DNA of 32,000 nucleotides from the NCBI RefSeq assembly GCF_000020025.1, contig NC_010630.1, positions 91,029 through 123,028 of the forward strand, in the 5' to 3' direction. This stretch comes from Nostoc punctiforme PCC 73102 (GTDB taxonomy: Bacteria; Cyanobacteriota; Cyanobacteriia; Cyanobacteriales; Nostocaceae). Positions 16,527 through 32,000 of the stretch are shown here, one piece after another. A program made the position numbers and the translations under genes. The notes below the pieces were generated by a model. That model saw nothing but the letters and a program-made list of their open reading frames with translations. It did not search any database and was not told the origin of the DNA. Position 1 is the stretch's first letter. The number at the start of each line of letters is the position of its first letter.

Positions 16527-18036
16527 TTGTATCCCACTCATGGTCAACCAACAGTTAGACCTTGGCGACTGGCGTTAATCTGTGTGCTGCAATTTATTGA
16601 AGATTTGCCAGATCGACAAGCTGCCGAAGCTGTCCGCAGTAGAATTGATTGGAAATATGTTTTGGGGTTGGAACTGACTGATTCAGGTTTTGATTTTTCT
16701 GTGTTGTGTGAATTTCGCGCCCGATTGATGGTAGGTGGTGCAGAACAACAACTGCTAGACACGTTACTGAGGCAATTTAGAGAGCGCGGATGGCTCAAAG
16801 AAAGAGGAAAACAGCGCACTGACTCCACCCATGTGCTGGCTGCTATCCGTAACTTGAACCGACTCGAAGGGGTAGGTGAAACTCTACGTGCAGCCCTCAA
16901 TTCACTAGCTACAGTCGCGCCCGATTGGTTGCGTTCATGGGTACCTTCAGAATGGTACGAGCGTTACGGTCGGGCTGTAGAAGAATATCGCTTACCCAAG
17001 GGCATTGCCGCACGCACCTGAATATGCCGAGATGATTGGCACAGATGGTATGCAGTTACTGATAGCTGTATGGGCAGAAACTGCCCCAGATTGGCTTGCT
17101 CATGTGCCCATCGTCGAAATTCTGCGACAGACTTGGGTACATCAATATTATGTGGAGAATGACCAAGTAAGATTGCGGGCTGCCAGTGACTTAGCCCCTT
17201 CTGGTAGTCGTTTTGACTCTCCTTATGACATCGATGCTCGCTTTGGTAATAAACGCAGTGTGACTTGGACTGGGTATAAAGTGCATCTGACCGAAACTTG
17301 TGATGAGAACCAAGTCCATTTAATTACTCATGCCATTACCACCCAAGCTCAGGTTTCAGATGTTACACAAACTGCATCTATTCACGAGGCATTGGCTGCC
17401 AAAGACCTGCTCCCCAGTCAACACATTGTTGATGCTGGCTATGTCGATAGTAATCTTATCGTCACTAGCCGTAAACAGTATGGAATAGATTTAGTCGGCC
17501 CAGTCCGCCCGAATGTTAGTTGGCAAGCTAAAACGCCTGGCGGTTATGATATCAGCCAGTTTACAGTGAGCTGGAATACAAAACGGGTGACTTGTCCTCA
17601 AGGTAAAAAAAGTACCAAAAAGTGGGTTCCGACTCAGGACAAGTGGGGCAATGCAGTGATTAACGTGAGATTCCCCCGCAAAACTTGCCGACTTTGCAAC
17701 GCCCGTGCTTTATGCACCCGCTCGAAAACTGAGCCAAGAGAATTGACACTGCGCCCAAAGGCAGAATACCTTGCATTGCAAACCGTGCGACAACAACAGC
17801 TTTCCACGGATTGGAAAAAACTCTATGACGCAAGAGCAGGAGTTGAAGGAACGTTGTCTCAAGGAATTGGCAGCTTGGGGCTGCGACAAGCTCGCTACAT
17901 TGGTTTGGTTAAAGTTCGGCTCCAGCACTTGCTGACTGCCGTGGCTCTTAATGTGGTGCGGATGGTTGCTTGGTTACATGGCCGAACCCATGCGAAAACC
18001 AGAATTTCTCGATTTGCTGCTTTAGCTCCAGTGTGA
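16527..18036 (+). pseudogene. IS1182-family (IS5-like DDE) transposase, 5'-truncated and frameshifted
   Basis: ORF 16527..17021 (LYPTHGQPTVRPWRLALICVLQFIEDLPDRQAAEAVRSRIDWKYVLGLELTD...QRTDSTHVLA) and ORF 17005..18036 are consecutive parts of one IS1182-type protein split by a frameshift near 17005-17021. Full-length homologues, as I recall them, carry about 50 more N-terminal residues. In-frame stops lie just upstream at ~16491-16514. Confidence 0.8.
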
Positions 18037-18084: not shown

Positions 18085-18156
18085 CTTCTCCATGTAATAC
18101 ACAGATAACCCTCTGCTACCTAATGAGCTAAAATAACGGTGTAATACATGGAGAAG
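18085..18156. promoter_or_regulatory. 18-bp inverted repeat (17/18) bracketing the upstream region and RBS of ORF 18162
   Basis: CTTCTCCATGTAATACAC (18085-18102) matches the reverse complement of GTGTAATACATGGAGAAG (18139-18156). The spacer is 36 nt. The right arm contains GGAG 8 nt upstream of the ATG at 18162. This could be an operator pair or an RBS-sequestering hairpin. Confidence 0.5.
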
Positions 18157-18161
18157 CGGTT

Positions 18162-18659
18162 ATGAAACGTGATATCCAGGGGAAGTTTGCCCTGAAAAAT
18201 GAAGATTATCGTTTAGTTCGCTCGTTAAGACTAACTGATTCCACGTGGGTAGCTTTGGGCATCACATCTGAATGCTTGGGTCTTACTAGGGCTGACTATT
18301 TAGAGCAGATCATTCGTGAAAAAGCTCTGCCAAGTACGGTTTCTCCAAGTAATACACGGGAGAAAGATTTCCTTTTTCCATGTATTACAAGGCAAAATAC
18401 GGATTCACCACCGCGTAATACACGGTTTCAGGAGGAAATAGAAGTACTCCTTGCTGAAATACAAAATCTCAGTCAAAAGAATGCTGCATTGATGCAACGA
18501 ACAGCAATTGCTTTCTCCCAAATAGAACTTGAGCTTTTACGCGATCGCATTTTGCTTGATTTGAAATTAGGCAAGCAAGCCCCTGGATACAAAGCTGTTC
18601 AAAAAGCTCTCAATCGTTTCATCGCTGAATTGACTTACCCAAACACAAGCGTTTTTTGA
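18162..18659 (+). CDS. Hypothetical protein with a ribbon-helix-helix-like N-terminus and a coiled-coil-like C-terminus
   Basis: 165-aa ORF with GGAG 8 nt upstream. RSLRLTDSTWVALGITSECLGLTRADYLEQII fits a strand-helix-helix (RHH/CopG-like) pattern, and the C-terminal half is heptad-like. The central part (PSNTREKDFLFPCITRQNTDSPPRNTRF) is encoded by three copies of the GTAATACAC DNA motif, so part of the ORF may be fortuitous. Confidence 0.55.
   Translation: MKRDIQGKFALKNEDYRLVRSLRLTDSTWVALGITSECLGLTRADYLEQIIREKALPSTVSPSNTREKDFLFPCITRQNTDSPPRNTRFQEEIEVLLAEIQNLSQKNAALMQRTAIAFSQIELELLRDRILLDLKLGKQAPGYKAVQKALNRFIAELTYPNTSVF
18348..18425 (+). repeat. Three further copies of the TGTAATACAC-type 12-mer inside ORF 18162..18659
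   Basis: AGTAATACACGG at 18348-18359, TGTATTACAAGG at 18381-18392 and CGTAATACACGG at 18414-18425. Spacing is 33 and 33 nt. The first copy is embedded in TTCTCCAAGTAATACAC, which matches 18086-18102 at 16/17. Confidence 0.6.
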
Positions 18660-18848: not shown

Positions 18849-19058
18849 ATTTTCCCGCCCACTTACTTAGAGCAAGAAGGGTCACTCGCTCTACCACAGA
18901 GCGAATTTGGTTTGGATGTGATTGCTTATATAGGAGCGTTACGATACCAGGAACATAGAAGTGTTCCCCAAATACACACTCACCTTGAATTAAAGGGTAT
19001 ATGTATAAGTCAAAGAACGGTCACGCACCTAATTGACAGATATGACGAATTACTTTCT
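18849..19058 (+). pseudogene. Internal fragment of a transposase gene (same family as 16216..16437), interrupted at 19058 by the Tn7-like element
   Basis: The open frame reads IFPPTYLEQEGSLALPQSEFGLDVIAYIGALRYQEHRSVPQIHTHLELKGICISQRTVTHLIDRYDELLS. It stops making sense exactly at the TGT terminus (19059) and resumes in frame at 31981 (LWLKDH...). There is a stop codon immediately upstream at 18846-18848 and no N-terminal part. Confidence 0.6.
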
Positions 19059-19076
19059 TGTGATTTGAATCATAAA
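19059..19076 (+). repeat. Outer element left terminal repeat
   Basis: TGTGATTTGAATCATAAA. It contains the TTTGAATCATAA motif, which recurs inverted at the other end. Confidence 0.85.
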
Positions 19077-19094
19077 ATAAACTTTTAGCTCACA

Positions 19095-19132
19095 ATATGC
19101 TTCAGAAAGCATTAACCATTTTATGCTTCAAA
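19095..19132. repeat. Two subterminal copies of the end motif in the outer left end
   Basis: ATATGCTTCAGA at 19095-19106 and TTATGCTTCAAA at 19121-19132. Both fit TTATG(A/C)TTCA(A/G)A. They are candidate TnsB-binding sites. Confidence 0.5.
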
Positions 19133-19157
19133 AATCGGCGAAAAAGTAGAAGACATG

Positions 19158-19174
19158 TTCCATGTAATACACAG
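19158..19174 (+). repeat. Sixth copy of the TCCATGTAATACACAG motif, inside the outer element's left end
   Basis: TTCCATGTAATACACAG (19158-19174). Its last 16 nt (TCCATGTAATACACAG, 19159-19174) are identical to 18089-18104. Confidence 0.6.
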
Positions 19175-19258
19175 TTAAGGGGTTAGATTTGGCAAAGCTG
19201 TCATGAAGTACAAACTAAACTGTTTAGTTTAAATATCAAGCATCACCATCTAAAGCCC

Positions 19259-19672
19259 TTAAATAGATACAGTTAAGATTTTAAACAACCAGTCTTCTAG
19301 AGGTACGCCGAATTCTTCTGGAATCTGTTGTTGTATCTTGGTGTATTGAACCTGATTCCAATATGCAGGATTAAATATACTGTGCGGAACTTCTACATCA
19401 ACTAATTGTGGATTTTCCATAACACGACACCACATTCTGGCTCGATAATCAATTGTGAGGTTCCCAAAAGGTAACTCAATCCAATAATGCGGTGACACTT
19501 GACCATGCCCAACCCATCGGAACGAACCGTACCAAATTAGATGTTCAATACCCTCATTAAATAAAATAGTAGAGAGAACTTTGCTATGCCCATCACACTC
19601 CGTTGGGGAATTATTCCAAACACCTAATTCTTCACGTAGCTGCTCAATAAAATCATTATTCATTCCAAGCAT
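19259..19672 (-). CDS. Hypothetical small protein with a papain/transglutaminase-like Cys-His-Asp pattern
   Basis: 137-aa ORF with GGAG 9 nt upstream of the ATG. The pattern TECDGHSKVLSTIL...GIEH...SPHYWIEL...LTIDY fits the order and spacing of the C..., HxWxE and D motifs of transglutaminase-like cysteine peptidase folds. This rests on the motifs alone. Confidence 0.55.
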   Translation of the reverse strand: MLGMNNDFIEQLREELGVWNNSPTECDGHSKVLSTILFNEGIEHLIWYGSFRWVGHGQVSPHYWIELPFGNLTIDYRARMWCRVMENPQLVDVEVPHSIFNPAYWNQVQYTKIQQQIPEEFGVPLEDWLFKILTVSI

Positions 19673-19784
19673 ATTTATTCTCCAATAGTACTTTCAATTT
19701 GCGAACTGTATTGATTGTCATATCAGCTTGTGTTGCTGTTTGACGCAATAATAATTTCTCATCAAGTGCTGCAATTACTCCTTG

Positions 19785-20753
19785 TTAAGCACGTTCTTCT
19801 TCAATTTCTTCAATTAACTGCTCAATCCAACTAGGTTTACCTGCTAGAATATCTACTTCAAACTCTGATAACTGCTTTTTTTTCATCCGCCGCAAATCTC
19901 GCAATGCAGCAGTCGCATCTTCCGGGTTGTCAAATTTGTAATATTCAGTCAAACTCCCAATAGAGCAATTGTAGTCAGCATATCTATATTTAAAATATTT
20001 CTCTACATTCCCTCGATGCGACCAGTGTCCTAAAACTTTGATTGAAACATGAGAAAAATGTTTGACCAAATCAGTTTGAACTTCAGCTACGCGTGCTTGT
20101 ATTTCCCGCCTAGTCACACCAATTTTATAAAATGTTTCTTTATCAGTATCAATTTGAAGGTAATACAGAGTATTCGATAAAATTTTCTTTAATTCGGCGC
20201 GATATATTTGCAGATCCCAAAGACATTCATGAAAATTTGATGCATCATCAAGATAAGCAACTTGAACTTTTTTCTCTAACTGCTGCAACTTCTCCCACAA
20301 TATTGATTCTTGCACTTGGTTGAACAGCATTAACGATAATGCACCAACAGGTATCTTACCTAGCTTGGTAAACTGGTATTCTCCATAGAGACGGTATTCA
20401 TTGTACTCTAACAATTTTTCTTTAATAAAAATTGAGTTAATTTTACTCTCATAAATACCTTTGTTCTTCCATCCGTATCGATTCCAAAGGGTCTTGATCT
20501 GTTGGAGTTCTTTACCTGTTAGACATATATTGAAGTTATTGTATAAAGGTAAAGTAGGAATTTCACGTTCACTGCGATTAGCTACTTCTCTGCAAGTAAA
20601 GTTAGTGTGTGCGAAGTGGTGTTCTTTACGATTTCCCTTTTTCGCCGTCAACTCACCACCACAGTAGGGACACTTTAACTGAGTTCTCCCTCGTAGAACA
20701 TCTTCAATCGGTACTAAGATCAAATCTAGGTCAACACCATACCTGAGCCACAT
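19785..20753 (-). CDS. Two-domain protein: CoiA-like Zn-ribbon N-terminus plus a T5orf172 (GIY-YIG-superfamily-like) C-terminal domain
   Basis: 322-aa ORF. The N-terminus LKCPYCGGELTAKKGNRKEHHFAH matches the CoiA-family signature C-x2-C...K.G....HFAH. The C-terminus FYKIGVTRREIQARVAEVQ...LGHW...GNVEKYFKYRY...EYYKF resembles the T5orf172/MUG113 pattern. Confidence 0.7.
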   Translation of the reverse strand: MWLRYGVDLDLILVPIEDVLRGRTQLKCPYCGGELTAKKGNRKEHHFAHTNFTCREVANRSEREIPTLPLYNNFNICLTGKELQQIKTLWNRYGWKNKGIYESKINSIFIKEKLLEYNEYRLYGEYQFTKLGKIPVGALSLMLFNQVQESILWEKLQQLEKKVQVAYLDDASNFHECLWDLQIYRAELKKILSNTLYYLQIDTDKETFYKIGVTRREIQARVAEVQTDLVKHFSHVSIKVLGHWSHRGNVEKYFKYRYADYNCSIGSLTEYYKFDNPEDATAALRDLRRMKKKQLSEFEVDILAGKPSWIEQLIEEIEEERA

Positions 20754-21065
20754 TTGGGAATACCTTTTATTTGATACACCAGGAAAGGTAGGCTTGAAAA
20801 GCGCGTAATGATATTTTACTGTATCAAAAAAAGCTGCTGTAAAATAAATAATTCTTAAGGAATTTATCTTAAAAAGAAATACGTTTAAATTCCCAAATTA
20901 ACATTGTCCAGTCATAACCATCAGAATCAACTACACTAATGTACCATCTAAAAGAGGCTGTATACCTCTTTAATGCCATTGACTTAACTAACATATTCTC
21001 TTCATCAGTAGCGTCGGAGCTATGACCTGCTTGAATTAAATCACCAACTCTAGTAATTTCATATA

Positions 21066-21344
21066 TTAATCAAGTGTTGAATAATCAGAAAGTTCTGTTG
21101 TTTCTAACTCACTTAAAAAGCCAGTTAATGCAAATGGACATTTACAACTAAGCTCTTTTTCTAAAAAATCAGCATTTAAGTGATATTCAAAACACACAGT
21201 ATCAAAAATATCCTCAGTAGTTAATTCTAGATTTTCATCTAATTCCACTATTCGTGCTTCTATTAAGTAAATTAGCTCTTTACTAGAGAAGTAAGTTTTG
21301 ATTGTAGAAGTAATTATTAGATGATTTATTTTAGTAACTATCAT
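21066..21344 (-). CDS. Hypothetical acidic small protein
   Basis: 92-aa ORF co-directional with tnsC, 31 nt downstream of the 138-aa ORF. I recognise no motif. It may be part of a longer frameshifted gene (see findings). Confidence 0.4.
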   Translation of the reverse strand: MIVTKINHLIITSTIKTYFSSKELIYLIEARIVELDENLELTTEDIFDTVCFEYHLNADFLEKELSCKCPFALTGFLSELETTELSDYSTLD

Positions 21345-21375
21345 TTTAACTCTCCGATGATTTTAAACATAATCT

Positions 21376-21792
21376 TCAAATTGGTAAATGCTGTTGTAAG
21401 ATTGGGTGCAAAGAAGCAGCAATTGCCTCAAACTTATCACCATCTGGATAGGGACGAAGAATTTCCTCACCGTCTTCGTTCAACCACTCTTGTCGTATTG
21501 GAGTGTACTCAAGCGATAGAATTGCAGTTCTCCACCAGCCAGATAATGCTAAATGTTCCCCAGACCAAAATAGCCGGAAATCAACCTTCTTATTTCGATA
21601 AACTTCACTAATAGGATTAGAATAAGGACGGTTTTTAGGATCAAAAGTCTCAGTAAAATAGCCTTGAAAATCAATTACTAAAAAATCTTTTTTAATTTCT
21701 GCTGTTAATTTAAAACGAGAGTGTAGATAATGAGCAGATAAAATTTTAGCGGCTGCTAATTCAAATTCTATAGGTAAAGTAGATAAACTCAT
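21376..21792 (-). CDS. Hypothetical protein in the position usually occupied by tniQ
   Basis: 138-aa ORF 90 nt downstream of tnsC on the same strand. It has no Cys-rich TniQ-like zinc motif and no family I recognise. Confidence 0.55.
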   Translation of the reverse strand: MSLSTLPIEFELAAAKILSAHYLHSRFKLTAEIKKDFLVIDFQGYFTETFDPKNRPYSNPISEVYRNKKVDFRLFWSGEHLALSGWWRTAILSLEYTPIRQEWLNEDGEEILRPYPDGDKFEAIAASLHPILQQHLPI

Positions 21793-21882
21793 TAATTAAT
21801 AATTTCCTTGAATACCGATGCGAACATTATTGAAAAATTGATACCCTTGATAAAAACTGTTTACTACTGAATTTTTTGATGT

Positions 21883-23355
21883 TCACTCAAGTCCAACAGT
21901 GTCTCGTTTGGGTTTGCGTTGCCCAACACGTTGGGAAGACTTTTTAGGCATTTTCTGTTTAGTTGCAGCTTCATCATCAATTGTCTTCTGTTCTATTATG
22001 GGACTGACAGTAATATTTGTTTCTAGTGGTGTCTCACTAATTGAAGAATCAGTTTGTTTTGTCTTCTTGCGAGTTTGTTTCTTCTTGGGGACTGGCTCTA
22101 TAGAAGTTTTGCCTGGTGTAGTAGAAGGCGTTTCATCTATCGTAGAACTGACGGGCTTTTTACGAGTCCGTTTCGCTTGAGATGGTGGTTTGTCAGATTT
22201 CGGAGGCGATGCTACCACATCTGCTGCGCCCTTTGATAAATCCACCGCAGTTTTTGGTACAGATGTAGAACCCATTCCCATCTGTAGCAAATGCCACAAA
22301 TGTTCACGGCGACTTTCCATATAAGAGAGTTTTTGTTCTCCCTCAGTGGTATCCAATGCCATACGTTCACATTGGGCTAGTGTTAGGGTATGTTCATGCA
22401 ATCTTTCTAAACTAAGAGTGTCGTGGCCATCATGTGCTACCGCTGCCACAGCCCGTATAAGCCAGTCTTTGAGTACCCCAACACAACCAATGCAACGTTC
22501 ATAGAAATAAAGCCAATGCTGCATTAGCTCTCTTACATCAACATTCATCGGTACTTGCATCAGGAGTGCCAATAATGCGGCTTGAAAATCCTGACGGTCA
22601 AGTTCATTTTGATACAGATAACGCGGAAAATGGATATCTAGTCCCCGCCGGGATGCTTGACCACTTAAATTGCGGAAATTTAGCAGTTCGTAAGTCCCAA
22701 TGAGAATGTGTAGCACACCCGTAACGTTGGTCATAGACTTAATCCAGTCCAACTGGTCTAAAAGCTTACCAGCACTTGCACCAGTCCCAATCTTCATTAA
22801 GTGCTGTGCTTCGTCCAAAATCACCGCCCGCACTCCGCGTTTGGTCATCGCTTCTTCTAATGCGTGGCGCAGTTCGGGAGAATCATTAAACTGCGCTGTT
22901 TTAGTCCGGGAGCGTCCTTTCTTCTCCCAAGTCTGCTCCGCATCAATATCTATCAGCATCCGCCGCTCATAGAATGGTTCTCCCAAAAGCTTTAGCGCAG
23001 TGCGGTAATAATCTGCGCGATTAAACACCCCACCGTCAGATGGTCGTGTTTCTAACAGCAATAACGGCATCAGGGGCTGACTGCCGTTACGATAGCTTAA
23101 GGAATTGGATACACCTGGTAACTGTTCGGGTACATTCTCATTTAACCGTTTAGCAATCTGCCGAATCATCGTTGTTTTACCCACACCGCTTGGCCCATAA
23201 ACCAACACATGAGCAAATCCGGCGGGTTCTCGAATCGCACGCATCAACAACATATCTACCCGTGCTAACTGGGGATGTAAAACTGCATACTCCTTAAACT
23301 GAGTTAGTTTGAGGTGCATTTGGTCGTTTTGATTAAGGCTCTCCAAATTGTCCAT
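21883..23355 (-). CDS. tnsC: TnsC/TniB-like AAA+ ATPase with a long low-complexity C-terminal extension
   Basis: 490-aa ORF. Walker A is VYGPSGVGKTT and Walker B is VILDEAQHL. The start overlaps the tnsAB stop (TAATG). The core is co-linear with the inner element's TnsC (…LDEAQHL…IGTYELLN…CVG(V/L)LK(D/N)WL…). Residues ~360-475 are K/P/T/S-rich. The terminal motif is RVGQRKPKRDTVG. Confidence 0.9.
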   Translation of the reverse strand: MDNLESLNQNDQMHLKLTQFKEYAVLHPQLARVDMLLMRAIREPAGFAHVLVYGPSGVGKTTMIRQIAKRLNENVPEQLPGVSNSLSYRNGSQPLMPLLLLETRPSDGGVFNRADYYRTALKLLGEPFYERRMLIDIDAEQTWEKKGRSRTKTAQFNDSPELRHALEEAMTKRGVRAVILDEAQHLMKIGTGASAGKLLDQLDWIKSMTNVTGVLHILIGTYELLNFRNLSGQASRRGLDIHFPRYLYQNELDRQDFQAALLALLMQVPMNVDVRELMQHWLYFYERCIGCVGVLKDWLIRAVAAVAHDGHDTLSLERLHEHTLTLAQCERMALDTTEGEQKLSYMESRREHLWHLLQMGMGSTSVPKTAVDLSKGAADVVASPPKSDKPPSQAKRTRKKPVSSTIDETPSTTPGKTSIEPVPKKKQTRKKTKQTDSSISETPLETNITVSPIIEQKTIDDEAATKQKMPKKSSQRVGQRKPKRDTVGLE

Positions 23356-26072
23356 TAACGGTATTCCCCTAGTATCGGCAGTCGTGTGAGATCCAACAGT
23401 TCAATGTTGTTTTGCAGTGCTGGCAATTGTTCGTCATCTTGACTGTGTGCTTCTATCTCCGGCTCAAGAGTGCTGACTGGGGGAAACTGGGGTACACCTT
23501 CCTTATTGAGTGTTAAATTCTCCAGTACCCCAACAGCTTCCAAATCCCGTAATCGTTGCATGAGTAAGATTTCATGTTCTTGCACCGCCGCGATGAAGTC
23601 TGCAAGGCGTTTGGCAGAGATATTTGTACTCACAGCATTACGCTTATCTTGCTGTCTGATTTCTTGGGCAGCTAATAGCACTTCTTTCTCCGTGCGTCCG
23701 GCAAAGGTGCTGTAATACTGGGAGATACATTTGACCCATCTTCCCTCTAAGTACGCATAAGCTACACCCATATCAAAAGGGTCATAGCGTACACTGACTT
23801 TGGTCTTTTCGACAACCGGATTGCGGAAAGCATCGTTCCAGTAATAAAGATAATTGACTTTAATTCCCTGTCCCGGCTGAACTTTAGCGTTGCCTTTGGG
23901 TGTACTAGGGCGTGTTGCCATGAGAAAGTCTTCGTTGTATGCAATACGTCGGTGTTCCCTCTCCCCTGTGGCAGCCATTGCGTCAGTATAAACTTGTAAT
24001 GGTGTCTCACCCAAGGAATCATGTACGCTTGTGTCATAAATGGTGTATGCCCACTCACTCAGGTAGGTATGTAAAGAAGCTAATGTCCAAACGGCAAGTT
24101 GTTTGGGGTCAACAGAAGAAGTGAGTTGACGCGGTTGTTTACTGGCTTGGGTGTTGCCCAGTAAGTTAAAGATAAATTCAGTATTAGTTGTTCCGAATAA
24201 TCGCTCAACTACTGAGCCAAAACGAGGTTTTGCACCAGGACGAGTCTTTTTGATGCAGTGGTAGCGTGCTAATAAGGTATCAAAGTAAACGCTATGAAAT
24301 TCCTTACCGCCATCTACAACTACAGATTGGGGAAAACGACCAAAACGCTGGACGCACAACCGTAGTGCCATCATGCAAGACCTGTAACTGGGTGGGTCAA
24401 AGGTGAGATAAACTGCTAAGATGCGTCGGGAGTAGGCATCAATCAGTAATGTCAGCCAAGGTCGTCCTAAGTTCCGACCAGTTACTTGGGAGCGTAATTC
24501 GATATCGAGTTGGGTGTGGTCAAGATGACAGATAGCAAAAGGTCTGTCTCCATGCCGGGGTGTAGTTCTAGCTAGTTCTAAGACAATCGGTTCTGTTGCG
24601 TATGCGGCTTTTGCTCCCTGACGTTTTAAAGTCTGCTCATGGATTGGACGCTTTTTTAGCCGAGTATAAAATGTGCGCTGACTCAGTGGAGGGATGTTGG
24701 CTGTACAGCAGGCTCTTGTATATGCCCGATAAACGGAAGCGGCTGGAGCTTGCCTTGGTGTCTCGAAGTGTTCTGTAATAAATTTATCTAGTAAAACGCT
24801 GGTATCTGTTGGTGCTTTGGATAGGCGATTTCCTCTATTATTTGTACGTGGGAGCAAACCAACATAACCGCAACCAAAAGTGGCTTCCGCTTCCCGAAAC
24901 TGTTTTACCCATCGAGATAAGGTGCTTTGAGGTATGTCCTTCCCTATATCTGTGTGATGCTGGAAATATGCTTGTACTAAATGAAATCTGCGATTGGCTC
25001 TTTGTAGATCCGCAGGCGAGGCGGCATCCATCAATTCACGCACTCCCTCATTGATGGTTGTTTGTTTTTCTGAGGTGAGAATATTGATAGTGCTACTGTC
25101 GAATAATTGCAGAAAAAATGCTGTGGGCAATTGCATTGGTTGCCCGACTGCGGGTAGCAGTGTGGTTGTAGTCTCGCCCAAGTTAACTAAAGTCCAAAGT
25201 TGTGAGTCCCAGACTAATAAGGTATTAGGCAAGAGTGTTGTGGGTGAGGTGATTTTTCGATGATCCCCAGTTGTCCCTATGGCTAAATATGTATGAGCAG
25301 TATGAGTTTGCTCATCTGCCCATAGCTGAACTCGCCAATGTTCCACTAGGGGAACTGCATACAAGTCCACGTAGAGTTGCTCTGTGGCAATCATGGCGTA
25401 AATATCGTTAGCACGCACTCCGGGAATGGTTGCAAGTGTGGCGGCTATAGTTATTCCTGGACTGGCTTTAACTGAAGACAGTATTTGTTCTGTAATGGAA
25501 AGGGGGACATTGGCGGTGAACCTAAAGTAGTCTTCTAAAAACATTAGGTTCTGGGTGAATATGGGATTTAGTTCGGTATCGGTGCGAACATGATATTTGA
25601 GTCCATAAGATTCGGCGTAAGCTTCTCCTGGTGGGCAATGCCAATGACCAGTTTCAGTTTTTTGGTAGCGTGAAGGGTATTTTTGGGCTAGTCGTTTTAA
25701 TTCGGTTTCGGTTTTCCATTCTTCCCAAGCTGCACCTGTCGTCCGCAGTACGAAGAAGTCTGGGGTATGGTAATGACCTATATTTCGTCCGTTTTGGTTT
25801 TGGTACTGAATTTTAAATGGAGGTGGTTGGTCGTAGAACTCTAACACCTGTGGGTCGTGTTCCATTTGGTAAATCGCCCATAGTTCTACTGTGTGGCTCT
25901 CAAATTGAATGGTTTGACCCATTTTGCGGCTAGGGTAAACTCCACTGACGTTCTTAGCGCGTCCTTGTACTCTGCGAGAAGGTGGGGCAGCGCGAATTGC
26001 GGCGATTATTAAGAGTATTTGTGCCGTTAGTTGCTGTTGCTTACACCAATGGTCAAATTCATCGTCTGTCAT
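23355..26072 (-). CDS. tnsB: TnsA-TnsB fusion transposase: N-terminal TnsA-like endonuclease module plus a DDE/rve TnsB-type transposase
   Basis: 905-aa ORF. The N-terminus QFESHTVEL...DPQVLEFYDQPPPFKIQY...YHTPDFFVLR...WEEWKTETEL gives E58/D105/K120. This pattern and spacing resemble Tn7 TnsA E63/D114/K132. The DDE core is HLDHTQLD, LLIDAYSRRILA and VVDGGKEFHS. There is no separate tnsA gene in the element. Confidence 0.85.
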   Translation of the reverse strand: MTDDEFDHWCKQQQLTAQILLIIAAIRAAPPSRRVQGRAKNVSGVYPSRKMGQTIQFESHTVELWAIYQMEHDPQVLEFYDQPPPFKIQYQNQNGRNIGHYHTPDFFVLRTTGAAWEEWKTETELKRLAQKYPSRYQKTETGHWHCPPGEAYAESYGLKYHVRTDTELNPIFTQNLMFLEDYFRFTANVPLSITEQILSSVKASPGITIAATLATIPGVRANDIYAMIATEQLYVDLYAVPLVEHWRVQLWADEQTHTAHTYLAIGTTGDHRKITSPTTLLPNTLLVWDSQLWTLVNLGETTTTLLPAVGQPMQLPTAFFLQLFDSSTINILTSEKQTTINEGVRELMDAASPADLQRANRRFHLVQAYFQHHTDIGKDIPQSTLSRWVKQFREAEATFGCGYVGLLPRTNNRGNRLSKAPTDTSVLLDKFITEHFETPRQAPAASVYRAYTRACCTANIPPLSQRTFYTRLKKRPIHEQTLKRQGAKAAYATEPIVLELARTTPRHGDRPFAICHLDHTQLDIELRSQVTGRNLGRPWLTLLIDAYSRRILAVYLTFDPPSYRSCMMALRLCVQRFGRFPQSVVVDGGKEFHSVYFDTLLARYHCIKKTRPGAKPRFGSVVERLFGTTNTEFIFNLLGNTQASKQPRQLTSSVDPKQLAVWTLASLHTYLSEWAYTIYDTSVHDSLGETPLQVYTDAMAATGEREHRRIAYNEDFLMATRPSTPKGNAKVQPGQGIKVNYLYYWNDAFRNPVVEKTKVSVRYDPFDMGVAYAYLEGRWVKCISQYYSTFAGRTEKEVLLAAQEIRQQDKRNAVSTNISAKRLADFIAAVQEHEILLMQRLRDLEAVGVLENLTLNKEGVPQFPPVSTLEPEIEAHSQDDEQLPALQNNIELLDLTRLPILGEYR

Positions 26073-26149
26073 GAGAATGCTTCTCTTTGCCAGGAGGCGG
26101 TTTTAGGCTTTCAGTACGCAATACCAAACTACAGAGGCATGGTTTTAAG

Positions 26150-26311
26150 TGAAGCATATCTTGGAATTTTGAACCATATTTTGAATTGAAAGTTTATAAG
26201 TGGGCAATTTTTTCAAAGATTTTTTGTGCAAGTTTCATTCAATTGTGTTTTTTCAACTCATTTTTTAATTATGCTTCAGAATTTTAACTCTCTCTCATGA
26301 TTTGATTCAAA
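26150..26311. repeat. Subterminal end-motif copies of the outer element's right end, between the tnsAB start and the nested insertion
   Basis: In the same orientation as the terminal site: TTATGCTTCAGA (26269-26280) and TTTGATTCAAA (26301-26311). In the opposite orientation: TGAAGCATAT (26150-26159) and TTTGAACCATA (26168-26178). Confidence 0.5.
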
Positions 26312-26357
26312 GTTTTATGTTGGGATTGGTGAGAAAGTCCGAAATTGCGTTAACTCT

Positions 26358-26408
26358 TGTCACTTAAAGGATATTGTGGCCGTTTTTAAACCATAAAGTG
26401 GCCGCAGT
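26358..26408 (+). repeat. Inner element terminal IR, tnsAB-proximal (right-end type)
   Basis: It contains two GTGGCCG-centred sub-repeats (ATTGTGGCCGTTTTT and AAAGTGGCCGCAGT), which are candidate TnsB-binding sites. Confidence 0.9.
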
Positions 26409-26518
26409 CATCTGAACTGGTAAGTATAAATATTTATATCAATAAAAGACTGTTTAACTGGCGAAAGCCTAGATTTGTGGTAAGAGCTTGTTGCGGCTTT
26501 AAAAGCTTGGGGGCCAAT

Positions 26519-29128
26519 ATGTTGAGCGACCAAGAGTTTAATGATTGGTGTCGCGGCGTAAATTTACCACAAGAGGCTAGGCAATTAATTTCCCAAATCC
26601 GTGCCTCTGAACCAATTCGGCGAGTCAAAAGCAGTGGTATAAATGTCCGGGGCGACTACGCCAGTCGCAAAATGGGAAAAACTATTCAATTTGAGTCCCA
26701 TAAAATTGAATTGCCAGGTGTAGAGGAGTACGAAGAAGACGCAGATGTACTCGAATACTACGACCAAGCATATCAAATTACTCTAGAATTCCCCTCAAGC
26801 AGTGGGGAAATAATCAAAGCTTCGCATATACCAGACTTTTTCGTAATTCGGAAGCGGAGTGCAGGTTTTGAAGAGTGGAAACCAGAATCAAGATTAGAAA
26901 AATTAGCAGCTAAACAATCACAACGTTATATGCGTTCAGAAGATGGGCAGTGGTTAAACCTGCCAGCAGTTGCTTATGCAGAAAAATTAGGACTGTATTA
27001 CCGAATTCGGTTAGATACAGAAATTGATTGGATTAAATACAGAAATCGACTATTTCTCAAAGCCTATACTACTGAAGATTACCAAATTGACCCAGAAATA
27101 GCTGAAAATTTGGTGAAGTTAATTAGCTTAAATCCGGGCATAAGTTATTGGGAAATGATTCATACTCAACAGAGCAATCCTGATGACATAAATGCTTTAA
27201 TAGCTACAAAAAAAATTTACATTAATTTGAGTGCCGCACCCTTAGCAGAGCCAGAAAAAGTACAGCTTTTCCGTGACCAAGAAATCGCGGTAGCTTATGT
27301 ACAAATGATAAAATCGCAACCGAATAATGGAACGATTCTGAATATTTTAGATGTTAAACCCAATCAACTGGAACCTAAAACTCATAATCAAGTAAAAATG
27401 TCTCCAAAAGCAATGGAGCGTTTTTTGAGAGCTAGTCCTGAAGACTTGGCAGAAGCTAACCGAAGATATGAAGTAATTGAACCTTATCTTAATGACAGTT
27501 ATAGAGATAAAGAAACTGTTCCACAACGTACTATTCGCAGATGGAAGGCTAAGTTTATAGCAGCACAAAAGGCGTACAAATGTGGTTATATTGGGCTGCT
27601 AAATAACTCTAATGCTAGAGGCAATCGCTTACCCAGAATTTCTCAATCGTCTCAAGATTTCATTGACAAAATAATTGAAGAATATTATGAAACTTTTCAA
27701 CAAAGAAGCAAACTAGCTGTTTATGGAATTCTAGCAAGAGAATGGGAGAAAGCAGGTCTAACAGATAAGCTGCCTAGCTACGCTACATTTTGTTCTAGAA
27801 TTCAACATCGTTCTGGTTATAGGCAAACAAAAAAACGTAAGGGAAACAGAGCAGCTTATCAACAATCTTTATTGTATTGGGAGTTGAAATTAACCACACC
27901 ATGTCATGGCGACCGTCCATTTGAGATAGCACACATTGACCATACGCAACTGGATATTGAGTTAGTATGCTCCCGAACAGGTTATCTTCTTGGTAGACCT
28001 TGGGCAACTCTGTTAATCGATGCTTACAGCCGACGTATTCTCGCAGTTTACCTAACTTTTGACGAGCCAAGCTACCGTAGTTGCATGATGGTATTAAGAA
28101 TCTGCGTACAGCGATTTGAGAAATTACCAGAGACAATAGTTGTTGACGGTGGGACAGAATTTAGTAGTACATACTTTGAGACCTTGTTAGCGGCTTTTGA
28201 ATGTACCAAAAAGCAGCGACCAGCTGCGAAAGCCAGATTTGGTTCAATTATTGAACGTATTTTTGGAACTACAAATACAGAGTTTTTTTATAATCTTAGA
28301 GGCAACACTCAAATTACTAAGAATGTCCGCCAAGTCACGAAATCAAATAATCCCAAAAATCAAGCTGTTTGGACACTAGATCAACTCTACGAAAACTTTT
28401 GTTCATATTGTTACGAATTCTATGATTGCAGAGAACATCCAACATTAGGACAAAGCCCACGTCAAACTTTTATGTCAGGGCTAAATTCAAGTGGTTATCG
28501 CCCTCAGAAACAGATTATTTATGATGATAATTTTAAGATTTTTACCTTACCTTCTACACCTAAAGGAACTGCAAAAGTTCAACCAAGTAGAGGCGTGAAA
28601 ATTAATTATCTCTACTATTGGTCAATTGATGATTCGTTCATAAGACCAGAAATTGAAGGAACTAATGTACCTATTCGTTACGACCCTTTTGATATGGGGA
28701 CTGCTTATGCTTACGTTAAGGGACGTTGGATACGCTGTATTTCTGAACATTACAAATCCTTCCAAAATCGTTCCGAAAAAGAAGTGAACATAGCCAGCAC
28801 ACAATTACGTCGAAAAAGGCAGAAACACGCTCAAAGAATTACTCTATCTGCCCAAGAAAAAGCTACATATTTAGAAGGAACTGAAGCCCAAGAAACTTTG
28901 TTATTACAACGCTTACATGATTTAGCACAACAAGATATTTGGGTTTTAATTGAAAAAAGCTCAGTTATTGAAAGTAAATTAAGTAAACACAATTATTCAG
29001 CTAATGTTCAAGATGTAGATAAAAATATTTTGGCAGGTTCAGAAAGCATTAAAAAGCCAAAATCATCAGCAAAAAAATTAATAGATTTAACCAAAATAGA
29101 AGCTTACAATACAGAGGAGCTATGGTAA
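26519..29128 (+). CDS. tnsB: TnsA-TnsB fusion transposase of the inner element
   Basis: The ORF track starts at GTG 26477. ATG 26519 gives MLSDQEFNDWC..., which is co-linear with the outer protein's MTDDEFDHWC..., so I prefer it (869 aa). TnsA-like module: QFESHKIEL...DADVLEYYDQ...HIPDFFVIR...FEEWKPESRL (E59/D106/K121). DDE core: HIDHTQLD, LLIDAYSRRILA, VVDGGTEFSS. By eye, long identical runs are shared with the outer protein across the catalytic core. Confidence 0.88.
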   Translation: MLSDQEFNDWCRGVNLPQEARQLISQIRASEPIRRVKSSGINVRGDYASRKMGKTIQFESHKIELPGVEEYEEDADVLEYYDQAYQITLEFPSSSGEIIKASHIPDFFVIRKRSAGFEEWKPESRLEKLAAKQSQRYMRSEDGQWLNLPAVAYAEKLGLYYRIRLDTEIDWIKYRNRLFLKAYTTEDYQIDPEIAENLVKLISLNPGISYWEMIHTQQSNPDDINALIATKKIYINLSAAPLAEPEKVQLFRDQEIAVAYVQMIKSQPNNGTILNILDVKPNQLEPKTHNQVKMSPKAMERFLRASPEDLAEANRRYEVIEPYLNDSYRDKETVPQRTIRRWKAKFIAAQKAYKCGYIGLLNNSNARGNRLPRISQSSQDFIDKIIEEYYETFQQRSKLAVYGILAREWEKAGLTDKLPSYATFCSRIQHRSGYRQTKKRKGNRAAYQQSLLYWELKLTTPCHGDRPFEIAHIDHTQLDIELVCSRTGYLLGRPWATLLIDAYSRRILAVYLTFDEPSYRSCMMVLRICVQRFEKLPETIVVDGGTEFSSTYFETLLAAFECTKKQRPAAKARFGSIIERIFGTTNTEFFYNLRGNTQITKNVRQVTKSNNPKNQAVWTLDQLYENFCSYCYEFYDCREHPTLGQSPRQTFMSGLNSSGYRPQKQIIYDDNFKIFTLPSTPKGTAKVQPSRGVKINYLYYWSIDDSFIRPEIEGTNVPIRYDPFDMGTAYAYVKGRWIRCISEHYKSFQNRSEKEVNIASTQLRRKRQKHAQRITLSAQEKATYLEGTEAQETLLLQRLHDLAQQDIWVLIEKSSVIESKLSKHNYSANVQDVDKNILAGSESIKKPKSSAKKLIDLTKIEAYNTEELW

Positions 29129-30261
29129 AAATTCAGTCGCACTCTTTTCCAGAAGAACTTCTCTTACAGCCGAACGAAATTAAAACTGATTATTTCAAAA
29201 GTATCACTATTCCACATCAAAGGCTCAAACAAGCCTTAGATACTTTATTAATTAATATTCTGGAGCCAGCTGACACTTTAGTATTTTTAGTTTTTGGTGT
29301 GACTGGTGTAGGAAAAACAACCTTACGCTTGCGTCTGGAAAATCTGCTAAATTACGAATTTCTCCCCTCATTACGCCAAAATCCTGGTCAAATTGCTGTT
29401 GCTGGTATTGAAGCTATTCCAACAGAACAAGGAAAGTTTAGCTATAAAGATTATTACACTCGCGCCCTAGAATCCCTTCAGGAAGTTTTGATTGAATACA
29501 AAATTGATTATGAAATTCCTCACGGTGAGGTAAAGGATTTGGGGTTGCTAAATCGGGCTTACCGCCAAGATTCGCCCGCATTACGCCGAGCAATGGAAAA
29601 AGCATTTCGTTATCGTCAGGTAAAAGCTTTTACTGTAGACGAGGCACAGCATTTATTTATGATGGCAGGCGGACACCAGATGTTACAGCAAATGAACTGG
29701 ATTAAGTCTATTGCTAATCTTACTGGTACAGTACATATTTTATTTGGAACTTATGAACTGCTTAACTGTCCTACCTTGAATGGGCAAATAGGGCGGCGTA
29801 GCGAAGATATTCACCTGTTACCTTACCAAGCTGATAACCCAGAAGATATTGCTGAATTTATTAGAGTAATTAGAACTTTTCAACGCCACATTCCGCTTGT
29901 ACAAGAACCAAAATTAGAACAACACTATGAGTATCTTTTTTCTGGCTCAGTTGGTTGTGTGGGGCTATTGAAGAATTGGTTAACTCGTTCTTTGAGAGTT
30001 GCCTATTCTGAAGAAGCTCGGACTCTTAATAGCAAACATCTTAAATTAGGTGCTTTTTCTGCATCTCGTATCAACAAAATTAAGGAAGAAGCACAACAGG
30101 GATTTAAACGCTTTCAAGAAGAATCCAGTTTTTTTGAGCGGCAATATTCAACAGAACATGGAATAAAAATGCCAGCCAAAAATTCCCTACTCAAAAAAGG
30201 TCGTGTTGGACAAAGAAAACCTAAAAGAGATGATGTAGGGGTAAATTCAGATGATGACTAA
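29122..30261 (+). CDS. tnsC: TnsC/TniB-like AAA+ ATPase
   Basis: 379-aa ORF. Walker A is VFGVTGVGKTT and Walker B is FTVDEAQHL. There is an ATGGTAA overlap with the tnsAB stop. The C-terminal motif RVGQRKPKRDDVG is shared with the outer TnsC. Confidence 0.9.
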   Translation: MVKIQSHSFPEELLLQPNEIKTDYFKSITIPHQRLKQALDTLLINILEPADTLVFLVFGVTGVGKTTLRLRLENLLNYEFLPSLRQNPGQIAVAGIEAIPTEQGKFSYKDYYTRALESLQEVLIEYKIDYEIPHGEVKDLGLLNRAYRQDSPALRRAMEKAFRYRQVKAFTVDEAQHLFMMAGGHQMLQQMNWIKSIANLTGTVHILFGTYELLNCPTLNGQIGRRSEDIHLLPYQADNPEDIAEFIRVIRTFQRHIPLVQEPKLEQHYEYLFSGSVGCVGLLKNWLTRSLRVAYSEEARTLNSKHLKLGAFSASRINKIKEEAQQGFKRFQEESSFFERQYSTEHGIKMPAKNSLLKKGRVGQRKPKRDDVGVNSDDD

Positions 30262-31837
30262 CATGGCGGTTAACGATGAATTGTGGCTCAAAGACCCAGA
30301 ATTTACTCCCAGTCCTAGCCGGTTGTTTCATCTGGAACCGATTGGACTTGGTACTTGTTATGTTGAAAGTCTGACTAGCTATGTTGCTCGTCTAGCCGCA
30401 GCTCATAGCGTATTGCCTGGAACTTTATTGGCTAGAGAGATAAAACCAATAGTTGGGCATAACCATACTACCAATCCCTTGAATTCTAAAAGTATCGTAA
30501 GTTTGTATGGACAAGCTTCTGTAAAAGCTTTAAACGGAACACAAATTGGAGCTAAACAACTGGTTTTTGCTCTAGAAATATTGACAAAACGTACTGACTT
30601 ACAGTTTTTGACAATGCTACCTTGGGCAAAAGTCTTCCCAGTTTTGGGATTGCTCAAGCATTCTCATGCTTGGTGTCCTTATTGCTATCAAGACTGGTTA
30701 AATAATCAACAAGTCATTTATTCACCTCTGCTGTGGGCTTTGAAACCAGCTAACATTTGTCCCATCCATTATCGATTTTTAGAATCAAAATGTCCTCACT
30801 GTGACCTTGAATTTTTACACCTGTGGCATAACTCACGACCTGGATTTTGTCTGAAATGTGGTGGTTGGTTGGGGATGAACTATGAAGTATCTTTGCCAGA
30901 TAAGAGATTGTTCGAGGAGATACCCAATTTACAGCAAGAGATTTGGATAGTTAAGACTTTAGGAGATTTAATTGCTCAAGCTCCTGAATTTCCTTGTCCA
31001 CCTCCAAGAGAGACTATTAAAACAATCCTAGAAGCTTACGTCTATCAATATACTCAAGGTAATGTTTCCGCTTTTGGTCGTTGGCTTGGGTTATCGAGAT
31101 ATGAAATTCTACATTGGTATTCAGGTGTAGCCATCCCAAATTTAGATAAACTTTTGAAAATCTGCTACGCCTTATCAACTAATCTTGTCGATTTTCTTCA
31201 ACTTAAAATACTACCTCTTACTCTTAAGCAGCTAGTTTCTCTACCTGCTCCTAAACAGAAAAAATTATCATCACAGTCTGCTTTAGTTACTTCAAATAGT
31301 AGTCCTAAGTGCGAACGAGTTATTCAGGCGATGCAACTAGCTCAAGAAGAAGAACCACCTCCTTCTTTAACTCAATTAGCTGTTCGTTTAGGATTCAAAA
31401 CTCCTAGTAGTTTAACTGCTTGCTCAAAATCTTTATCAGCATCTTTGGCTACTAGATATAGTGAATATCAACAGCAGCTAAGATTTTTACACATCAGAGA
31501 CATACTTGAATTAGCTTTGTTTAGCGACGAGTATCCACCACCTTCTCTAAGAAAAATAGCTAAGAGAACTGGTATTGGTTTGGCTACTTTCTACCACTAT
31601 TGCCCTATTGTGTGCCATGCTATTTCTTTACGCTATAAAGATTACCGCAAATTCGTCCATAAACTAGCTATTGAGCAAGGCTGTCGAGAAGTACGCCAAC
31701 TCGCTTCAGTACTTCATGCACAAGGCATTACCCCTACTGCTAAAAATCTCAGAAAATTTATGCCTCATCCCTCTTTGCTGTGGCAGGCTGAGGTAATTGA
31801 TGTTTTAAGGCAGATAAGACTGGATCTTTCACAGTAA
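30251..31837 (+). CDS. tniQ: Large TniQ/TnsD-like target-selector protein
   Basis: 528-aa ORF overlapping the tnsC end by 11 nt. TniQ-type N-terminus: LFHLEPIGLGTCYVESLTSYVARLAAAHSV. Cys-rich zinc module: WCPYCYQDW...CPIHYRFL...CPHCDLEF...CLKCGGW. C-terminal HTH-like segments include an internal repeat: PPPSLTQLAVRLGF and PPPSLRKIAKRTGI. Confidence 0.85.
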   Translation: MMTNMAVNDELWLKDPEFTPSPSRLFHLEPIGLGTCYVESLTSYVARLAAAHSVLPGTLLAREIKPIVGHNHTTNPLNSKSIVSLYGQASVKALNGTQIGAKQLVFALEILTKRTDLQFLTMLPWAKVFPVLGLLKHSHAWCPYCYQDWLNNQQVIYSPLLWALKPANICPIHYRFLESKCPHCDLEFLHLWHNSRPGFCLKCGGWLGMNYEVSLPDKRLFEEIPNLQQEIWIVKTLGDLIAQAPEFPCPPPRETIKTILEAYVYQYTQGNVSAFGRWLGLSRYEILHWYSGVAIPNLDKLLKICYALSTNLVDFLQLKILPLTLKQLVSLPAPKQKKLSSQSALVTSNSSPKCERVIQAMQLAQEEEPPPSLTQLAVRLGFKTPSSLTACSKSLSASLATRYSEYQQQLRFLHIRDILELALFSDEYPPPSLRKIAKRTGIGLATFYHYCPIVCHAISLRYKDYRKFVHKLAIEQGCREVRQLASVLHAQGITPTAKNLRKFMPHPSLLWQAEVIDVLRQIRLDLSQ

Positions 31838-31871
31838 ATCTTATTTATTCGCCTTTCTCTAAGGTTTTACT

Positions 31872-31922
31872 ACTGCGGCCACTTTATGCTTTAAAAACGG
31901 CCACAATATCCTTTAAGTGACA
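31872..31922 (-). repeat. Inner element terminal IR, tniQ-proximal (left-end type)
   Basis: Its reverse complement equals 26358-26408 except for one base. Confidence 0.9.
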
Positions 31923-31934
31923 ACTCTTCTCGAT

Positions 31935-31975
31935 TTATGATTCAAAATTTTTCCCACATTATGATTCAAAGCACA
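31935..31975 (-). repeat. Terminal 41 bp of the outer element's right end, now separated from the rest of that end by the nested element
   Basis: TTATGATTCAAA occurs at 31935-31946 and 31959-31970 (24-bp period). It ends ...GCACA at 31975, the inverted counterpart of 19059-19076. Confidence 0.85.
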
Positions 31976-31980
31976 TTTCT

Positions 31981-32000
31981 TTATGGCTAAAAGACCATAA
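31981..32000 (+). pseudogene. Continuation of the transposase fragment interrupted at 19058
   Basis: After the TTTCT duplication the frame continues TTA TGG CTA AAA GAC CAT (LWLKDH) with no stop up to the window edge. Confidence 0.5.

Follow-up and report, generated by a model that had tools for sequence, protein, structure and literature searches.

We analysed a stretch of 32,000 nucleotides from Nostoc punctiforme PCC 73102 (assembly GCF_000020025.1, contig NC_010630.1, positions 91,029 to 123,028), hereafter referred to as the window, in which one Tn7-like transposon lies inside another. The two will be called the outer and the inner element, terms that a preliminary description of this DNA had used correctly. 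Segment 25697-26893 of the window comprises the 5' parts of two divergent transposase genes, one from each element, both named tnsAB here, and the 446-bp spacer between them. Both open reading frames (ORFs) are uninterrupted and encode proteins of 905 (outer) and 869 (inner) amino acids, which are collinear with 43% identity across 850 residues. The start of inner tnsAB was placed by homology at the ATG at 26519, while the mechanical ORF begins earlier, at a GTG at 26477. In both proteins a TnsA-type nuclease domain occupies the N-terminus, in frame with a TnsB transposase of the DDE type, an arrangement that places them in the fused TnsAB clade; TnsA is not a separate heteromeric subunit in either case, being fused to TnsB in both genes. 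We are highly confident that both genes encode TnsAB fusion transposases that belong to the published cyanobacterial TnsAB clade of Tn7-like transposons. The two genes and their main parts are as follows.

23355..26072, minus strand: outer tnsAB, 905 amino acids; Pfam PF08722 (42.9 bits), rve and Mu-transpos_C
25323-26072, minus strand: TnsA-like part of outer TnsAB, residues 1-250
25884-25886, 25758-25760, 25719-25721 and 25713-25715, minus strand: codons of the predicted outer TnsA catalytic residues E63, D105, E118 and K120, respectively
24519-24521, 24312-24314 and 24204-24206, minus strand: codons of the outer TnsB DDE residues D518, D587 and E623, respectively
26519..29128, plus strand: inner tnsAB, 869 amino acids; PF08722 (30.0 bits, on residues 74-163)
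26519-27268, plus strand: TnsA-like part of inner TnsAB, residues 1-250
26708-26710, 26834-26836, 26873-26875 and 26879-26881, plus strand: codons of the predicted inner TnsA catalytic residues E64, D106, E119 and K121, respectively
27938-27940, 28145-28147 and 28253-28255, plus strand: codons of the inner TnsB DDE residues D474, D543 and E579, respectively

Pfam and domain searches over the ORFs of both elements found no further ORF with a TnsA domain, in agreement with the preliminary description, which had noted that a separate tnsA is missing from both.

The TnsA module and its putative catalytic residues

The TnsA pattern in both proteins is far beyond chance. PF08722 (Tn7_TnsA-like_N), with a gathering score of 26.5 bits, is exceeded by the outer protein (42.9 bits) and by residues 1-250 of the inner protein (30.0 bits), and it is matched by all 25 aligned homologues. 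The N-terminal 250 residues match the TnsAB protein of PDB entry 9BW1 (chain M) with E-values of 5e-77 (outer) and 8e-63 (inner). Moreover, the entire outer protein is collinear, over residues 4-850, with the 898-residue PmcTnsAB chain of that entry (E=4e-268). AlphaFold2 (AF2) models of residues 1-250, for which the 25-sequence alignment served as input, have a mean predicted local distance difference test (pLDDT) score of 90.9 for the outer and 91.3 for the inner protein. When these models were compared with the PDB using Foldseek, the top match was 9bw1_M, with template modelling (TM) scores of 0.87 and 0.84, respectively. Next came the crystal structures of Tn7 TnsA, 1T0F and 1F1Z (probability 1.00, E 6e-7 to 3e-5), and further down there were weak matches to restriction-endonuclease-like nucleases, including RecU, Bax1 and PfoI. 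A HMMER profile of 25 family members, searched against the PDB, picked up 9BW1 alone and, by sequence, missed Tn7 TnsA, so that the link to Tn7 TnsA needed Pfam, hhalign and the fold search. Since the models match TnsA and other PD-(D/E)xK nucleases, a non-nuclease fold is not what was found, and both profile and structure-prediction checks bear out the N-terminal restriction-endonuclease-like domain proposed in the preliminary description. Its view that both large transposases are natural TnsA-TnsB fusions is likewise supported, by Pfam, the 9BW1 match and the fold search.

Residues 1-250 appear to form a complete TnsA module, with an N-terminal helical extension, a PD-(D/E)xK core and a helical C-terminal subdomain. 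It is followed by a linker/DNA-binding region, the DDE core (D518/D587/E623 in the outer protein and D474/D543/E579 in the inner one), a Mu-transposase-like β-barrel and a C-terminal tail. The C-terminal subdomain deserves comment, as the fusion had been thought to be compact and to lack it. The Foldseek alignments cover 267-288 columns against Tn7 TnsA chains of 260-264 residues, and thus span the full TnsA chain, with the helical subdomain at residues 170-229 in both AF2 models. Among the 25 homologues, 16 match PF08721 (TnsA_C), and hhalign pairs TDTELNPIFTQNLMFLE of the TnsAB family with TDKEINPVVKENIEWLY of Tn7 TnsA. Two results of the Pfam search speak against the presence of this subdomain: the PF08721 match of the outer protein (residues 168-237) scores 17.8 bits, below the cut-off of 23.4, and the inner protein has no PF08721 match. 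The fold-level evidence and the family members nevertheless indicate that the TnsA C-terminal helical subdomain is probably present in both.

The outer protein has the motifs FES at residues 57-59 (E58), LEFYDQ at 77-82, PDFF at 104-107 (D105) and EEWK at 117-120 (K120). Their inner counterparts, E59, LEYYDQ (78-83), D106 and K121, lie one residue later. FES, PDFF, EEWK and the inner equivalents are numbered as in the preliminary description, which had taken E58/E59, D105/D106 and K120/K121 as the catalytic triad. Its aspartate and lysine stand, while the glutamate has to be moved five residues downstream: hhalign of the family profile with the verified Tn7 TnsA sequence pairs outer E63, D105 and K120 with Tn7 E63, D114 and K132, respectively. 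In the 25 homologues E63, D105 and E118 are invariant, K120 is conserved in at least 90%, and E58 is nearly invariant. In PD-(D/E)xK enzymes, the catalytic glutamate sits on the first core helix, and in the AF2 model outer E63 is the first residue of helix 63-72. The catalytic glutamate is therefore predicted, from alignment and model, to be E63 in the outer and E64 in the inner protein, within the motif V/I-E-L, and not E58/E59 of FES. As read from the alignments, the full putative motif is E63 ... P-D105 ... E118-x-K120, with E64, D106 and E119-x-K121 as the inner equivalents. The (L/V)E(F/Y)YDQ segment, which had been placed after the triad, lies at residues 77-83, between the glutamate and the aspartate and not after the lysine.

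The catalytic sites listed for PmcTnsAB in a 2026 preprint, E62/D104/K119 in TnsA and D519/D588/E624 in TnsB, correspond to those of the outer protein. The deposited chain M of 9BW1, however, has alanine at position 62 (the TnsA glutamate) and at position 519 (the first TnsB aspartate). It looks like an engineered double catalytic mutant and calls for caution when it is taken as an active-site reference. We considered that Ala62 might be a natural loss of the glutamate that lies behind the cointegrates of the PmcCAST transposon; this was rejected because D519 is also alanine and the preprint names E62 as catalytic.

The fused TnsAB clade and the presumed mode of transposition

In the survey by Hsieh & Peters (NAR 2022, PMC9881144), over 800 cyanobacterial Tn7-like elements were sorted into three groups: some lack TnsA, others encode TnsA and TnsB separately, and the third group is a fused TnsAB clade. 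The latter includes the type I-B2 and I-D CRISPR-associated transposons (CASTs), many tRNA-targeting elements, Tn5469 and Tn5541 (PMC9881144). Reviews and later papers likewise describe one clade in which TnsA and TnsB are joined in one transposase, and sporadic fusions in type I-F3. The statement in the preliminary description that natural TnsA-TnsB fusions had been reported was correct (Hsieh & Peters 2022 and later papers), but its suggestion of an unusual heteromeric-transposase architecture does not hold, as this architecture defines a large published cyanobacterial clade. The fused architecture is already known, and both window proteins are ordinary members of the clade. Both elements have an adjacent gene for an AAA+ TnsC downstream of tnsAB, TGT...ACA termini, repeated TnsB-site motifs and a 5-bp target-site duplication (TSD). 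The relatives all come from Nostocales and other cyanobacteria; those that match over the full length, with 50-98% identity, are from Nostoc, Rhizonema, Pseudanabaena, Floridaenema and Leptolyngbyaceae. The hallmarks of a CAST are missing from both elements: domain searches showed no Cas domains in the element ORFs, and there are no Rfam matches and no CRISPR array among the repeats.

The closest solved relative is PmcCAST (Tn7744). Its TnsAB, in the cryo-EM structure PDB 9BW1 (Wang et al., Cell 2024), is part of the TnsABCD transpososome of a type I-B2 CAST found in the cyanobiont of Peltigera membranacea and is a natural fusion, with the PD-(D/E)xK nuclease at residues 73-172 and the DDE domain at 509-634. 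It has the same single-chain layout as the window proteins, namely the TnsA nuclease, the helical subdomain and TnsB. PmcCAST differs in that it carries cas genes of type I-B2, a TnsD that targets tRNA and a further TniQ, whereas both window elements lack cas genes and the outer element also lacks TniQ. McCAST (Tn7575) belongs to the same fused clade and, unlike the window elements, is a CAST of type I-D and has a tRNA attachment site. Its D106 has the same residue number as inner D106, a likeness of numbering only. In Tn7 TnsA (1F1Z, 1T0F) the fold is shared, as probably are both subdomains, and the catalytic E63/D114/K132 align with outer E63/D105/K120. Identity is 14-17%, and Tn7 TnsA is a separate subunit recruited via the TnsC C-terminus, whereas TnsA in the window is covalently joined to TnsB.

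Homology to McCAST, PmcCAST and Tn7 suggests that the TnsA module would cut the 5' strands at the element ends, and that the DDE module would cut the 3' strands and join them to the target. The outcome would be cut-and-paste insertion with a 5-bp duplication, controlled or gated by the adjacent AAA+ TnsC. Both TnsA modules are thus presumed by analogy to be active nucleases, and both elements would move by cut-and-paste. In McCAST, for which alone the literature demonstrates TnsA-dependent cut-and-paste in this clade, cointegrates were found in 0 of 150 cases with the wild type and in 149 of 150 with TnsAB(D106A) (Hsieh & Peters, PMC9881144); the E/D/K-mutant experiment that the preliminary description had proposed has thus already been done. 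Furthermore, identical proteins are found on many short, repeat-limited contigs of public assemblies (107 and 60 index blocks), which is consistent with recent mobility.

Three other explanations were weighed, of which one has some weight. The TnsA-like module could be structural, packing on TnsB and TnsC as a weak or inactive nuclease, in which case movement would be largely replicative, via cointegrates. PmcCAST gives grounds for this view and counts against clean cut-and-paste, as it is reported to form appreciable cointegrates despite its TnsA domain (PMC9881144; 2026 preprint). Its cointegrate rates are reportedly similar to those of TnsA-less type V-K systems (PMC9881144), and an engineered derivative gave 15.7% cointegrates, called comparable to native PmcCAST (2026 preprint). 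An intact motif is accordingly no guarantee of clean cut-and-paste, and the efficiency of the nuclease is the chief uncertainty. On the other side, all the catalytic positions are intact and family-invariant, McCAST, of the same clade, is strictly cut-and-paste in a D106-dependent manner, and neither element has a resolvase. We consider a purely structural module unlikely.

The other two explanations dispute the fusion itself or the identity of its N-terminus, and we give either of them next to no probability. An apparent fusion might arise as an artefact, when a sequencing or assembly frameshift, or a stop-codon loss private to this genome, joins tnsA and tnsB. We found no point in favour of this. 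The window has two independent genes of the same architecture at 43% identity, the 905-residue orthologue is annotated on Anabaena variabilis plasmids, the full-length matches extend across cyanobacterial genera, and the solved PmcTnsAB is one chain of 898 residues; an artefact is refuted because the fusion is conserved across genomes. It might also be supposed that residues 1-170 are a non-nuclease DNA-binding domain with a coincidental E/D/K pattern, as would be allowed by the family HMMER profile, which on sequence alone does not find Tn7 TnsA in the PDB. The profile and fold searches refute this, with PF08722 above its cut-off and the TnsA crystal structures matched by Foldseek at probability 1.00, ahead of other PD-(D/E)xK nucleases. 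Cut-and-paste movement by fused TnsAB transposases with a functional nuclease remains the preferred reading for both elements.

Composition of the outer and inner elements

The remaining features of the two elements are as follows.

19059..31975: outer Tn7-like element, 12,917 bp (7,347 bp once the inner element is subtracted), with ends TGTG...CACA
19054-19058 and 31976-31980: outer TSD TTTCT, 5 bp, from reading of the sequence
21883..23355, minus strand: outer tnsC, AAA+ ATPase of 490 amino acids; Pfam AAA_22 and TniB
21376-21792, 21066-21344, 19785-20753 and 19259-19672, minus strand: four small cargo ORFs of the outer element, spanning 19259..21792
26073..26357: interior of the tnsAB-proximal end of the outer element, cut off by the inner element from the terminal 48 bp; includes a third repeat at about 26297-26320
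31928-31975: terminal 48 bp of the outer element, two 24-bp repeats
26358..31922: inner Tn7-like element, 5,565 bp, ends TGTCAC...GTGACA
26353-26357 and 31923-31927: inner TSD ACTCT, 5 bp
29122..30261, plus strand: inner tnsC, AAA+ ATPase of 379 amino acids; Pfam AAA_22 and TniB
30251..31837, plus strand: inner tniQ, 528 amino acids, TnsD-like; Pfam PF06527 (58.6 bits)

At the ends of the outer element, 19059-19075 matches 31959-31975 in inverted orientation. Once the inner element and one copy of the TSD are taken out, the outer element can be aligned to a copy on plasmid A of Anabaena variabilis as a single high-scoring segment pair (90.3% over 5103 columns) that runs through the insertion point to the tip; being uninterrupted, it represents the inner insertion's empty site. 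Gene order is the same in the A. variabilis homologue, and the 905-residue orthologue of outer TnsAB on plasmid A of strain ATCC 29413, at 92% amino acid identity, bears the RefSeq name 'TnsA endonuclease N-terminal domain-containing protein'. At 490 vs 379 residues, the outer TnsC exceeds the inner one by about 110, and no Pfam domain was found in its extension. A Pfam and domain search found no TniQ among the ORFs of the outer element, and none of the cargo ORFs is TnsA-, TniQ- or Cas-like. The element may possibly choose its targets via the extension of the long TnsC.

These features place the outer element near the Tn5541 branch, in which TnsAB and TnsC occur without TniQ (Schaefer & Kahn 1998; Hsieh & Peters 2022). 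It shares with this branch TnsAB, a C-terminally extended TnsC and the absence of TniQ, which is a published trait of the branch. Its nucleotide identity is 77% with copies carried by plasmids of Tolypothrix PCC 7601, the source strain of Tn5541, and 90% with those on A. variabilis plasmids. Tn5541 is described as cargo-free and found only on plasmids, whereas the outer element has about 2.7 kb of small cargo ORFs; its relatives are on plasmids. A telomeric transposon, which a long TnsC and the lack of TniQ could bring to mind, was considered and rejected, as cyanobacterial telomeric elements have no TnsA. In the cargo ORF at 19785-20753 (minus strand, 322 amino acids), a CoiA_N zinc-ribbon-like N-terminus is accompanied by a MUG113/T5orf172 (GIY-YIG-like) domain, and the cargo region with this ORF is one of those in which the A. 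variabilis copy differs. The outer element also splits a DDE-transposase-like ORF (18860-19058 and 31981-32000, continuing in L141). This ORF reads through once the outer element and one TTTCT are removed, with RTVTHLIDRYDELLS on one side of the junction and LWLKDHKRLK on the other, and it has weak IS66, IS481 and IS256 matches.

The inner element holds just tnsAB, tnsC, tniQ and its ends, with no cargo, and its inverted repeats of 52 nt are 98% complementary. In its TniQ protein, residues 30-177 make up the TniQ domain, and residues 277-317 give a weak HTH_26 match (17.6 bits, below the cut-off of 22 bits). The inner element would pick its targets through this single TnsD-like TniQ. It resembles Tn5469 in gene content (TnsAB, TnsC, one TniQ and no cargo) and compact size (5.6 kb). 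Tn5469, however, is described as untargeted, while inner-type copies recur at one position in the ends of other elements. Near-identical full copies of the inner element are present in other Nostoc assemblies (loci L004, 97%, and L005, 98%). A 214-bp miniature derivative of an inner-type element was seen at positions 2647-2860 of locus L115, with both ends and a GTTCT duplication, which indicates that non-autonomous inner-type copies are mobilised.

Elsewhere in the window, a motif of 17-20 nt, TTCTCCATGTAATACAC, occurs four times in 18086-18390 and 19156-19178, and at 18085-18156 it forms inverted pairs; the tnsAB-distal end of the outer element contains one copy. The motif may represent either a small dispersed repeat or the end of a miniature inverted-repeat transposable element (MITE). 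Segment 4826-15789 (minus strand) carries a hybrid gene pair of a non-ribosomal peptide synthetase (NRPS, 1801 amino acids) and a polyketide synthase (PKS, 1853 amino acids). An insertion sequence at 16527-18036 (plus strand) adjoins this NRPS/PKS pair, and its transposase consists of two overlapping ORFs, DUF772 followed by DDE_Tnp_1_6. The transposon cluster thus abuts a natural-product locus.

Inner-type insertions at the ends of other elements

The inner element lies 53 bp from the outer tip at the tnsAB-proximal end, a distance made up of the 5-bp duplication and the two 24-bp terminal repeats. By analogy with Tn7, the term right end is used here for the tnsAB-proximal end and left end for the tniQ-side one, although the convention of the clade may differ. 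The same geometry was found in nine other loci (L005, L006, L007, L012, L030, L118, L119, L128 and L150), from Nostoc, Rhizonema, Nostocaceae, Aulosira and several metagenomes. In each of the ten loci, 5 bp and then 47-49 bp made up of two repeats come after an inner-type end. The tip ends in ...CACA in nine of them, and in GCATA in L150. The loci include miniature (MITE-like) derivatives of inner-type elements, and where genes are present the tniQ-side end points toward the host tip (5 of 5 cases). In locus L006 the duplication ACTGC is intact on both sides. For the metagenomes, a scan was made with a 16-mer from the inner end; most matches were due to chance, and 13 matches, in 12 of the returned loci, extend to a real inner-type end.

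The host tips are just 46-85% identical to one another, while the inserted ends are 76-98% identical. When the window is compared with L005, the inner elements are 98% identical beside host tips of only 62% identity, which argues for independent insertions and not for one inherited composite. Movement of the inner element together with the 53-bp host tip as one unit was also considered, and was rejected because the flanks of L007 show no matching duplication for such a unit. More than 20 outer-type tips on plasmids are unoccupied. There are exceptions to the pattern. The neighbour of L009 is a response-regulator gene, the flank motif differs in L004 and L002, and L018, a more distant relative, has no host tip. 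In L150 (6425-6485) and L030 (minus strand), the 5-mer after the host tip is the same as the 5-mer before it (CTCTT and AAAAT, respectively), for which a compositional preference in target choice or a different history of insertion could be responsible.

The recurrent position suggests targeting of transposon ends. As a tentative proposal, to which we give somewhat less than even odds, the inner-type family may use the ends of other TnsAB-clade elements as its attachment site, inserting in one orientation, inside the two repeats of about 24 bp and about 48 bp from the tip. It would thereby home into the host end and probably cripple it. The literature that we searched contains no description of Tn7-like elements that target the ends of other elements.

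For the fusion itself, routine annotation and the published clade definition apply to the window, with the catalytic glutamate corrected. The nested pair is a natural case of one fused-TnsAB element at a fixed position in the end of another. If inner-type elements are indeed targeted there, transposon ends would be a new class of Tn7 attachment site, beside tRNA genes, glmS, res sites and CRISPR repeats, and the inner element would offer a compact TnsD-like targeting module for study.

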